UHGV virus genome: UHGV-2203451
Source: a virus
Reading direction: 5' to 3' (one strand)
Length of the DNA: 37,884 nucleotides
Numbering within the stretch: position 1 is the stretch's first letter; each line of letters starts with the position of its first letter. The position numbers were made by a program. Shown here piece by piece: positions 6,001 to 9,000 of this stretch.

Positions 6001-9000
6001 GTCCATTTTTTCTTTCGAATCCCAAGCCGATATACGGGTAATCGTCATTAATGGTGAGCCATGGTTTATCGCTTCAGATGTTTGTCGGGCTATAGGCATA
6101 GCAAATCATCGAGATGCTGTTCGAAAACTTGATGATGATGAGAAGGGCGTCGCTTCAACCGACACCCCTGGCGGTGAGCAAGAATCGATCATCATCTCCG
6201 AGTCAGGCCTCTACACACTGATCCTCCGCTGCCGCGACGCAGTGACACCAGGCACTATCCCCTACCGCTTTCGTAAATGGGTTACAGGTGAGGTTCTTCC
6301 TCAGATCCGCCGCACCGGAAGTTACATTAAAAACTCGCTCCCGCAGGAAGAACGCATAAAGATGGTTGCCGACCAGGTAGCCAACGCCACAGCATCAGCA
6401 GTGATGCAGGCAATGAAGATAGAGAACAAAACCTACAGTGCCCCACTGAAGCCCGGCTACCGCAGCCTGATTCATTCGCCGTCTGGTGTTCTCGGCCTGA
6501 CGGAGAACTCACTGCTGATGAATCTGCTGAACCAGTTACAGGAAGACGGGCACGACGTATCGGGCGCGGCGGCGGAGCTGACCACCATGTTCTGCTACAT
6601 CGTCGGTGTGAGCAAGTGCCTGCGTGATATCCAGACGCACGCGGAGTACATCAACGACAAGGCTGGGTTCTTCTGACGGGCGGCGGCACATGGATGTGCC
6701 TTTAAAATAATCATTGGCGATGTGATGTAGATTCGCGTAATATTACCTTACGGGTAAGAAAGCGTTTTTAATCTTCCCTTCAAAACGCGTCCTGTAGCCA
6801 AACATGGGAGGACGAAATGAAAACAAATACAACAAGAAAAGCGATGCCATACATTATCCCAGAAGCAGATTTCGACAGAAAACTGAACATGTCTGAGAAG
6901 AACACTAGTCACACCGAAAGCTACTTAGCGAAAGGTGTGGTTGATTTCGTTCTTCCGGGATTCACAACACCTTATGGTTATCGCCTTGTAAAATCTTGTA
7001 ATGGCGATCATTACAGAATGATTACTACCAGCGATACTCCAGAAACGGTGTATGCGGTTAAGTTAATCTTTCGGGAAGATATCGTCGAAGCTAAAAGAAC
7101 ATGTACGCAGATCATGGTATGGCGTACGCCTAATGTTATTCATGACCGTGCTGTTCATGGTTTGCCTCAGATTTTTTTTCAGTTCTTCCTAGAGCAATAT
7201 GCGATCGTTGTATCTGATGAGCAACAAACAATCGATGGGAGAAGATTCTGGGAAAGAATGATTTCTTGGGCTATAAACACCCCGGGATATAATGTATACG
7301 TTTCAGATGGCTCTGAAGAAGATAGACCTCTTAGCTTCATGACATCATGGGATGATTTCTATAGCCAGTGGGCTGATTTCTGTTGGGGCAGTGATAAAGA
7401 TGTGCATACCCACAGACTACTGGTTATAAGCAAAGATAAACTGCATTAATAGAAGCCCGCAGCGCGGGCTTTTTTGTGGACGAAACAAAAGTCAGTGCTA
7501 CACTCATTGACGCCACATTGAGGTGGCTTATAGATGGAAATTTCACAATGAAAAAAGCATTTGCTGCACTGTTCGTTTTGTTGTCTCTGGTAGCTTCAAC
7601 TCAGGCCTTTGCCGGTCGTTGTCAGCACGACAGCGATACTGCTGCTGACGGCTCCCGCTGCGGTGGGCGTTCTGCGGATTCCCGCCCGGGTGGCGGTGGC
7701 ATTCGTTAAAAACAAGGCCGCGAAAGCGGCCTGTTTGATCACTGTGCAGTTTTCGCTGATCGATTTTCAGCTCTAAATTCAAGAACCGTTTCAATATTTC
7801 TTTCCTTCAGCATATCAATAACATTTTTATTCATTTGACTATCACTGGTTAATAACTGGTAAACGTTGCTTCTCTCTTTATCAGAGTTTTCTTTAACAGC
7901 TGCTTTGCATGCCAAATGCTTATTGAAATTTTCTACATCGCTAGTACAGGAATTTACGGCTGCTGATGAAATATCAGACGCTGAAGAAACACCATCATCC
8001 AAACGTTTTATAGCATTTTCTATACATGAGTTAAGGGAATAAACGACAACTGAGCGATACCCTTCAGACGCACACCATTCTAAATTTCTTGAAGGATCGA
8101 GTGGTTTTACTTCGCTGGATTGAATTAACTTGTCAAAAACTGACTTATATTCAATCTGTTTTTTATCTATAGCCCATACTTCAGTAGCTGATTTATAATT
8201 CCCCGTATGCCTATTAACATCAAATCCATGTTTTATAAGCAAATCTGCCCATGAAAGATTTATTGATTCATTGTTATGAGGCCATTTTCCTGTCAGAACC
8301 GCCCCCATAGACCCCATATATCCGCCATATGATGGTATAGCACCATGGCTCAGTAACTTCTCAGCAACCACAGGGCAATTAATTACATAAGAGGCGTAAA
8401 GCCCATTCCATAAAGCCCCTCTATAGTAATCGCCACGATTAGGTTCTTTTAAGTCGATAGCCTTTGATAATTGTTCACACGTTTTGCATGCATCAAAGTT
8501 ATCCTTATTGCATTGCAATGAACTGGCAGCTGTAGGATTTACAGAGACTATTGAAAGCACTATGCCAAAAAACAAATTTATTTTTTTCATCCTATTTCAT
8601 CTGCTCTTCAACTTTATTTAGTAACGGTGATATTGCCCACAGGTTCTGAAAAGGTAGCATTTTACGGACCGCGTGGGTTTGCTGGCTGTCAAATTCTCCG
8701 TTAAGTACACCATTCGCAACCGTCGCGGCATCACCGCCAAGATCAAAGGTAGGACCAAGTAAAGCACCAATAGCATTACGACTCTGAAACCTTGATACCG
8801 GAGGCGCACCAAACATCGCGCCAAGACCAAACCTACCGCCGCTTATGTTCTCAACGGTATTCAGCGGCTCAGAGAGCCAGCCAAGCATTCCGCCCCGGTC
8901 GATCCCCTCTTTCACAAGGTTATTCCAGCTGTAGTCAATATCGCGACCGCTTAACTTCTGTTTCATCATATAGACCATTGAGCCAAGCGCAATCGTGCCA

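Follow-up and report, generated by a model that had tools for sequence, protein, structure and literature searches.

The 37,884-nucleotide (nt) stretch of viral DNA analyzed here (UHGV virus genome UHGV-2203451, hereafter the window) represents the prophage of a temperate podophage of the epsilon15/phiV10 type. Prophages in E. coli APEC O18 and IHE3034 are essentially identical to it, and the isolated podophage EC.W1-9 shares 99% identity with it. At positions 7739..8590 of its minus strand lies an open reading frame (ORF) for a 283-amino-acid (aa) accessory protein, predicted to be exported and to have two domains, which belongs to PHROG 6118 and is carried in RefSeq as a 'hypothetical protein' (WP_000723561.1). 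Our results suggest, with a probability that we would place at roughly 0.4, that this product is a periplasmic anti-muramidase protein acting in exclusion or immunity. Following export by Sec and removal of the signal peptide, an ankyrin domain and a helical domain would remain in the periplasm, and the former would bind the Enc34/PHA02564-type domain of the gp15-like ejection protein of an incoming relative. Such binding would neutralize the muramidase once the internal proteins of a related virion enter the periplasm of the occupied cell, may also sterically block assembly of the trans-periplasmic conduit, and would in this way prevent genome entry or lysis from without. The computed elements of this scheme are a real, selected and dispensable ORF, its signal peptide and ankyrin-like fold, the muramidase domain in the ejection protein, and the linkage of the two domain families; physical binding, inhibition, an exclusion phenotype and the time of expression are the steps that we infer.

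The N-terminus of the protein reads MKK-INLFFGIVLSIVSV-NPTAA/SS (cut before SS), and inspection recognizes in it the n/h/c layout and the small residues at -3 and -1 of a Sec signal peptide for signal peptidase I (residues 1-22/23; 8525..8590, minus strand). This prediction, made without a lipobox in sight, also draws on the AlphaFold2 (AF2) model, in which the predicted local distance difference test (pLDDT) score is below 50 over residues 1-24. In almost all complete members of the family (about 30), a hydrophobic N-terminus of variable sequence stops just before the first conserved Cys, and the signal peptide proposed in a preliminary description of this gene is thus upheld by inspection. 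It is the single hydrophobic segment, the remainder being modelled as soluble domains. A lipoprotein was ruled out, as no [LVI][ASTVI][GAS]C lipobox is found (C27 follows SLQ here, and the equivalent Cys follows AK and GQ in orthologues). This sets the protein apart from the lipoprotein receptor blockers Llp of T5 and Cor of phi80, and as for the receptor masking that the preliminary description also entertained, we found nothing specific in its favor. Our search returned 22 homologues, none of them annotated, in whose alignment 8 Cys are invariant, and given these residues, disulfide bonds probably form in the mature protein once it is in the periplasm. Searches of Pfam, NCBIfam and PADLOC were empty for the entire protein, for each of its domains and for the stand-alone relatives of these, and PHROG 6118 itself has no assigned function.

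The AF2 model has a mean pLDDT of 76 over the whole protein. The N-domain (residues ~27-160; 8111..8512, minus strand) is predicted to consist of degenerate ankyrin repeats with a Cys-rich cap (C27, C35, C38, C72). Profile or fold comparison assigns it to the ankyrin superfamily, with helix-turn-helix repeats of ~33 aa in tandem, a TPLH-like start and the LLxxGA motif; at the gathering threshold, the Pfam Ank models matched neither the protein nor its stand-alone relatives, the repeats being degenerate. The C-domain (residues ~165-283; 7742..8098, minus strand) is a helical bundle bearing the motif LDDGxSxASDI, flanked by the conserved C189 and C215, and pLDDT reaches 91.7 in this C-terminal half. 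The 283-aa protein is a fusion, as an exhaustive profile search showed: the N-domain occurs by itself in secreted proteins ~160-175 aa long (E down to 1e-41), and the Cys-flanked motif of the C-domain in others of 110-160 aa, likewise secreted. Origin of the protein by fusion of a two-gene operon was ruled out, because the downstream neighbors of stand-alone N-domain genes are muramidase genes and not homologues of the C-domain.

Genes adjoining the stand-alone N-domain genes, in fact, repeatedly encode a domain with the motif RNNNPGNI...RWAP..EN...HENG. At locus L046/L047 this is a muramidase-type protein of 179/189 aa, encoded downstream with a 4-nt overlap; at L044/L045, in a Bacteriovoracia genome, it is a fusion of the domain with DUF3892, encoded upstream and again with a 4-nt overlap; a partner of the same kind lies ~0.5 kb from the N-domain gene at L042; and at L008 the domain forms the C-terminus of a tape-measure-like protein, encoded in the tail-gene cluster that also holds the N-domain gene. 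It corresponds to the PHA02564/Enc34-endolysin catalytic domain (PDB 7Q47, E = 1e-16; 9vvp_L, E = 3e-36), and the PHROG labels of the corresponding families are endolysin or tail-injection transglycosylase. The Enc34 domain is muralytic by experiment, and its catalytic Glu lies in the HENG motif (PMC8943055). In the window, a domain of this type spans residues ~247-365 of the 915-aa ejection protein (13634..13990, minus strand; motif RNNNPGNI ... HENG), with HENG intact, and it is the target that we propose. A muramidase-bearing gene is located ~3.4 kb upstream in 69 of the 72 loci of the full-length family, and the other 3 are without upstream sequence.

A hidden Markov model (HMM) of the muramidase domain was built and run over all distant loci; many locus look-ups gave short contigs, and 8 independent stand-alone contexts were informative. 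The scan placed an Enc34-type domain near the stand-alone N-domain in 4 of these 8, adjacent or overlapping in 3. Given that the domain occurs in 808 of 50,697 whole phage genome records (1.6%), this is far above chance (roughly 5e-6, as a binomial bound on an association noticed post hoc). Furthermore, in the adjacent cassettes (L042, L044/45 and L046/47), no signal peptide is predicted on the enzyme and one is predicted on its ankyrin-like partner, which by sequence is the classic effector-immunity arrangement; adjacency of this sort with the Enc34/PHA02564 family extends from the 4 stand-alone contexts to all full-length loci with enough flank. These pairs also bear on a different explanation, in which the 283-aa protein would be an orphan immunity protein guarding the lysogen against the Enc34-type effectors of competing bacteria, delivered for example by a type VI secretion system (T6SS), and not against phages. 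The resemblance of the stand-alone pairs to effector-immunity cassettes would suit such a role, and a T6SS effector with an Enc34-like N-domain has been described together with its signal-peptide immunity proteins (PMC13340143). We nonetheless find it quite improbable, as every full-length member sits in a phage that itself carries the target domain, none of the contexts retrieved showed T6SS genes, and expression is apparently tied to the late operon.

The concept of such an inhibitor is known, and what differs here are the scaffold, the target and the type of phage. The Spackle protein (Sp) of T4 is a periplasmic inhibitor of the gp5 tail lysozyme of superinfecting relatives (PMC7677548). 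Both proteins are phage-encoded and small, with a signal peptide, disulfides and a periplasmic location (these being predictions in our case), and both would follow the logic of opposing a virion hydrolase. The target of Spackle, however, is a tail spike with the T4-lysozyme fold, whereas here it would be an Enc34/PHA02564 domain in an internal ejection protein of a podophage; moreover, Spackle is the product of an early gene of a virulent phage, while the gene discussed here closes a late operon in a temperate one. No Spackle chain was present among the PDB sequence or fold matches of the 283-aa protein. Bd3460 of Bdellovibrio is a periplasmic ankyrin protein whose gene adjoins that of the peptidoglycan hydrolase that it binds and inhibits, for self-protection (PMC4686830), and it is called to mind by the stand-alone N-domain relative in the Bacteriovoracia genome, whose gene overlaps a muramidase gene. 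The targets of Bd3460 are however DD-endopeptidases and not a glycosidase-type domain, no specific sequence similarity to it came to light, and the protein of the window differs in its degenerate repeats, Cys-rich cap and additional C-terminal domain. Periplasmic lysozyme inhibitors and the Tai/Tsi immunity proteins of T6SS are likewise exported inhibitors of hydrolases, encoded with or beside the enzyme, but the folds of Ivy, MliC and PliC are unrelated and not ankyrin, and no homology to them was detected. It is possible, although we hold this broader proposal only tentatively and with considerable doubt, that the N-domain represents an unrecognized and widespread family of secreted ankyrin-like immunity proteins specific to Enc34/PHA02564 muramidases, used in cassettes of two genes, enzyme and immunity protein, by free-living and predatory bacteria, and that in temperate podophages its fusion to a second periplasmic module borne by prophages gave rise to a Spackle-like exclusion protein.

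An ankyrin protein with a signal peptide encoded by a phage could also be taken for an effector of the 'Ankyphage' type, freed by lysis or carried in vesicles and modulating an animal host, for which ANKp offers a precedent (bioRxiv 10.1101/608950); the carriers here do include extraintestinal pathogenic strains (IHE3034, APEC O18 and ST131). A Sec signal alone, however, reaches only the periplasm, where a protein with 8 invariant Cys would be well suited, and the relatives are found in soil, marine and predatory bacteria and in muramidase cassettes, so that we regard a eukaryote-directed function as very improbable.

That the 283-aa ORF is a real gene under purifying selection is evident from its comparison with the Klebsiella-type orthologue, as the ratio of nonsynonymous to synonymous substitution rates (dN/dS) is 0.15 for the whole gene, 0.11 for the N-domain and 0.20 for the C-domain. 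The ATG start codon (8590-8588) is separated by a single base (8591) from the TAG stop codon (8594-8592) of the upstream gene, which encodes a gp16-like protein of 1129 aa. The TGA stop codon (7741-7739) lies 6 nt from the beginning of a terminator hairpin (7732-7715; 7 bp, 6 of them G-C, loop TTTC, then TGTTTTT) with a free energy of -16.5 kcal/mol (z = -3.5 compared to shuffles). GC content is 36.7% (28% at third codon positions) compared with 48.3% in the upstream gene and 47.9% in the window as a whole, and the AT bias is shared by the orthologues of Morganella (35 vs 52% GC in neighboring genes) and Serratia (40 vs 53%). The preliminary description had noted the 1-nt gap, the strong terminator and the marked AT-richness, and measurement confirms all of them. 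It had also called this the terminal gene of the virion operon, which is accurate in that the gene is the last of its leftward transcription unit, but the tailspike gene (1560-4142, minus strand) lies further on, separated from that unit by an oppositely oriented block with the Bro-N gene and accessory genes. The intrinsic terminator as a whole (7705..7732, minus strand; hairpin 7715-7732 plus T-run) is common to the convergent gene at 7542-7709 and is part of the conserved flank and not the 283-aa gene's own.

Sequence comparison further indicates that the ORF is an accessory cargo gene in a recombinational hot-swap slot (7735..8591), since homology with relatives devoid of the gene is lost where the gp16-like gene stops and, at the opposite end, shortly past the hairpin. 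Among 120 complete E. coli genomes that hold the 3' end of the 1129-aa gene, 106 have the 283-aa ORF, and in the remaining 14 homology breaks exactly at 8592, within that stop codon; at the other flank, homology with phages lacking the gene ends at ~7734. With these boundaries, the swapped unit is a bare ORF without a promoter or terminator of its own, and zero upstream non-coding DNA is left in the cassette. The gene is missing from Klebsiella phages with a 92-94% identical gp16-like protein, from Vibrio phages and from TL-2011b, and the slot holds other genes instead: in E. coli DEC9B (L072 3098-4000), one for a secreted 146-aa protein that contains Cys and is encoded on the opposite strand, together with one for a protein of 149 aa; in a Klebsiella phage with a gp16-like protein of 92% identity (L040 6510-7124), one for a protein of 204 aa; in phiV10 (L039 9066-9206), one for a 46-aa protein with two transmembrane helices; and in TL-2011b (L041 6599-7162), one for a signal-anchored protein of 187 aa. 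No known family was found for these four sets of occupants, several of which are envelope-targeted. In prophages of Morganella and Serratia, the slot directly behind the 1129/1131-aa gene is likewise occupied by orthologues (41-61% identity), as is that of Providencia prophages (40-60% identity class). Because the slot is kept, the AT-richness is equal, and the Morganella and Serratia orthologues have diverged about as much as the neighboring virion proteins (44-79% identical), the gene has long travelled with the ejection module.

Absence of the gene from 14 of the 120 E. coli modules and from the Klebsiella relative with the 92% identical gp16-like protein, with unrelated genes in its place, rules out an essential virion role and lends good support to the earlier view that the product is no component of the virion; the gene does not belong to the core virion set, as it is not present in all phages with this virion module. 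One could still think of a dispensable virion or ejection protein, or of a lysis-timing factor restraining an Enc34-type lysin. The coupling to the ejection-protein genes, the presence of the gene in the isolated phage EC.W1-9 and the Enc34-type endolysin of a Morganella prophage would each agree with one or the other. We give these possibilities scarcely any credence, as a capsid in the cytoplasm cannot package an exported protein, relatives with a near-identical virion module lack the gene, and the endolysin of the IHE3034 prophage belongs to GH19 and is not of the Enc34 type. The preprint on EC.W1-9 apparently contains no virion proteomics, and no paper mentioning the accession of the 283-aa protein was found.

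Several points weigh against an anti-muramidase exclusion protein and should be considered together. Classical superinfection exclusion needs expression in the lysogen, and a consensus scan of 7400-9200 found no sigma-70-like promoter; a perfect TTGACA upstream was ruled out as a promoter element, the nearest -10-like hexamer being separated from it by a 22-nt spacer. The poor Shine-Dalgarno sequence, combined with the 1-nt gap, suggests translational coupling to the late gene, and the late, coupled expression that these features suggest fits classical exclusion in the lysogen poorly. A late-acting role, shielding the infected cell while its neighbors burst, is possible but speculative. The linkage to muramidase genes was, again, noticed post hoc, and the HMM found no Enc34-type domain in half of the contexts (L048, L062/63, L065/66 and L038/67); of these, L065 and L067 still resemble prophages. 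Under many growth conditions, phages can dispense with the lysin activity of T7-type internal proteins, so that catalytic inhibition alone might yield only conditional exclusion. In the Morganella prophages, where the gene in the endolysin position (L002 14247-14723, after two holin genes) is of the Enc34/PHA02564 type, a broad inhibitor would hinder the phage's own lysis. Lastly, the proposal leaves the C-domain unaccounted for, and a search for its structural neighbors returned nothing informative.

Due to these difficulties, we also considered a factor of exclusion or lysogenic conversion that acts at the envelope on some other target, be it the gp14/gp16-like conduit proteins, a protein of the host periplasm or outer membrane, or the receptor pathway. 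Ankyrin repeats serve as general-purpose scaffolds for binding, envelope-targeted proteins recur in the slot, no muramidase lies near half of the stand-alone relatives, and the C-domain family is tied to immunity regions of prophages without any muramidase. The map position is moreover that of P22 sieA, whose target is gp16/gp20. Such a factor would however leave unexplained the tight adjacency or overlap with Enc34-type genes in cassettes unrelated to virions, and no particular alternative target is indicated, which makes it rather unlikely in our opinion, if less so than the other alternatives discussed here. SieA itself acts on incoming ejection proteins (PMC10883804), and its gene resembles ours in map position only, after the ejection genes and before the antirepressor region and the tailspike. 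SieA resides in the inner membrane as an integral protein and is made in the lysogen from a promoter of its own, and in both respects the 283-aa protein, predicted to be soluble and periplasmic and encoded by a promoterless cassette, departs from it. The superinfection exclusion that the preliminary description had put forward therefore receives indirect backing from the sieA-like position, the predicted periplasmic location and the linkage of the N-domain with muramidases, and is weakened by the lack of a promoter in the cassette.

Two relatives of the C-domain may add to the case for an anti-muramidase protein protecting the lysogen: L069 is encoded directly downstream of a CI-type repressor gene and L068 beside the tailspike and lysis genes of a prophage, which are typical sites for lysogen-protecting genes and support such a role. 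As an AT-rich extra gene of a late operon that is patchy among close relatives and encodes an envelope protein, the 283-aa gene also resembles morons such as lom and bor of lambda and gp15 of HK97. By the definition of Hendrix and colleagues, its deviant composition and its presence or absence among relatives agree with a moron, but a classical moron has its own promoter and terminator inside the unit, whereas here a bare ORF is flanked by a stop codon and by a terminator that serves two genes.

Short-tailed phages cross the cell wall by means of internal ejection proteins with lysin domains, and to our knowledge almost nothing is known, apart from P22 SieA, about how a resident phage blocks this wall-crossing step. 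If Enc34-type lysins are indeed inhibited, a function would be gained for the unannotated PHROG 6118 family and its stand-alone relatives, a natural inhibitor would become available for a class of lysins explored as antibacterials, and the gene could serve as a marker for cross-resistance of E. coli and Klebsiella lysogens, including sequence types ST95 and ST131, to therapeutic podophages. It would also be a clean case of a bare-ORF cargo slot beside ejection genes, and a Spackle-like protein aimed at the lysin of an ejection protein would be the first such system for podophage ejectosomes. If no lysin is inhibited, the gene is an ordinary uncharacterized cargo gene of a prophage.

On the minus strand, the genes around the 283-aa ORF follow the order 823-aa tail protein, internal proteins of 154 and 192 aa, 915-aa protein, 1129-aa gp16-like protein and 283-aa ORF. 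The 192-aa protein (14728..15306, minus strand) is a gp14-like internal virion protein of PHROG 418, named 'virion core protein, T7 gp14 family' in RefSeq, and the 915-aa ejection protein in the gp15 position (11981..14728, minus strand) belongs to PHROG 1044. The 1129-aa gp16-like internal virion (ejection) protein (8592..11981, minus strand) matches PHROG 342 over profile positions 192-1227; since the match begins only at position 192, this protein lacks the usual N-terminal lysin domain, and the Enc34-type lysin is placed in the gp15-position protein and not in the gp16-like one. Its RefSeq name, 'DUF919 family protein', is probably a naming artefact, as the underlying match to a baculovirus family has 23 bits over 46 residues. 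The convergent gene bordering the slot (7542..7709, plus strand) encodes a signal-anchored protein of 55 aa (phrog_14503) with a Gly/Arg-rich tail, conserved in phages of the phiV10, TL-2011b, phiv142-3 and Klebsiella types; it runs toward the hairpin at which the 283-aa gene also ends, and marks the left edge of the slot, which is fixed.

Among the distant loci, L008, L065 and L067, all from Proteobacteria, have the N-domain gene at the edge of similar phage-like elements with baseplate and tail-fiber genes, which also hold small proteins with the motif 'RCKLHGG', and umuD/umuC-like genes are found downstream at L008. Elsewhere in the window, a 223-aa hexapeptide-repeat acyltransferase is encoded at 869-1540 (plus strand), just past the tailspike gene, whose product combines a pectate-lyase-like beta-helix with an endosialidase-chaperone domain; the pair is probably a module for acetylation of surface polysaccharide (lysogenic conversion) like Oac of phiV10, and NeuO-like 5' repeats were looked for in the acetyltransferase gene and not found. 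The Bro-N gene (5981-6676, plus strand) is, on sequence grounds, a mosaic antirepressor-like gene, the last ~85 residues of its product recurring almost unchanged at the C-terminal end of a 314-aa TL-2011b protein that differs elsewhere. Finally, two overlapping ORFs of 203 and 151 aa (4620-5231 and 5116-5571, both minus strand) have no family match, and their place is taken in the IHE3034 and DEC9B prophages by a YafO-family toxin gene and its partner.

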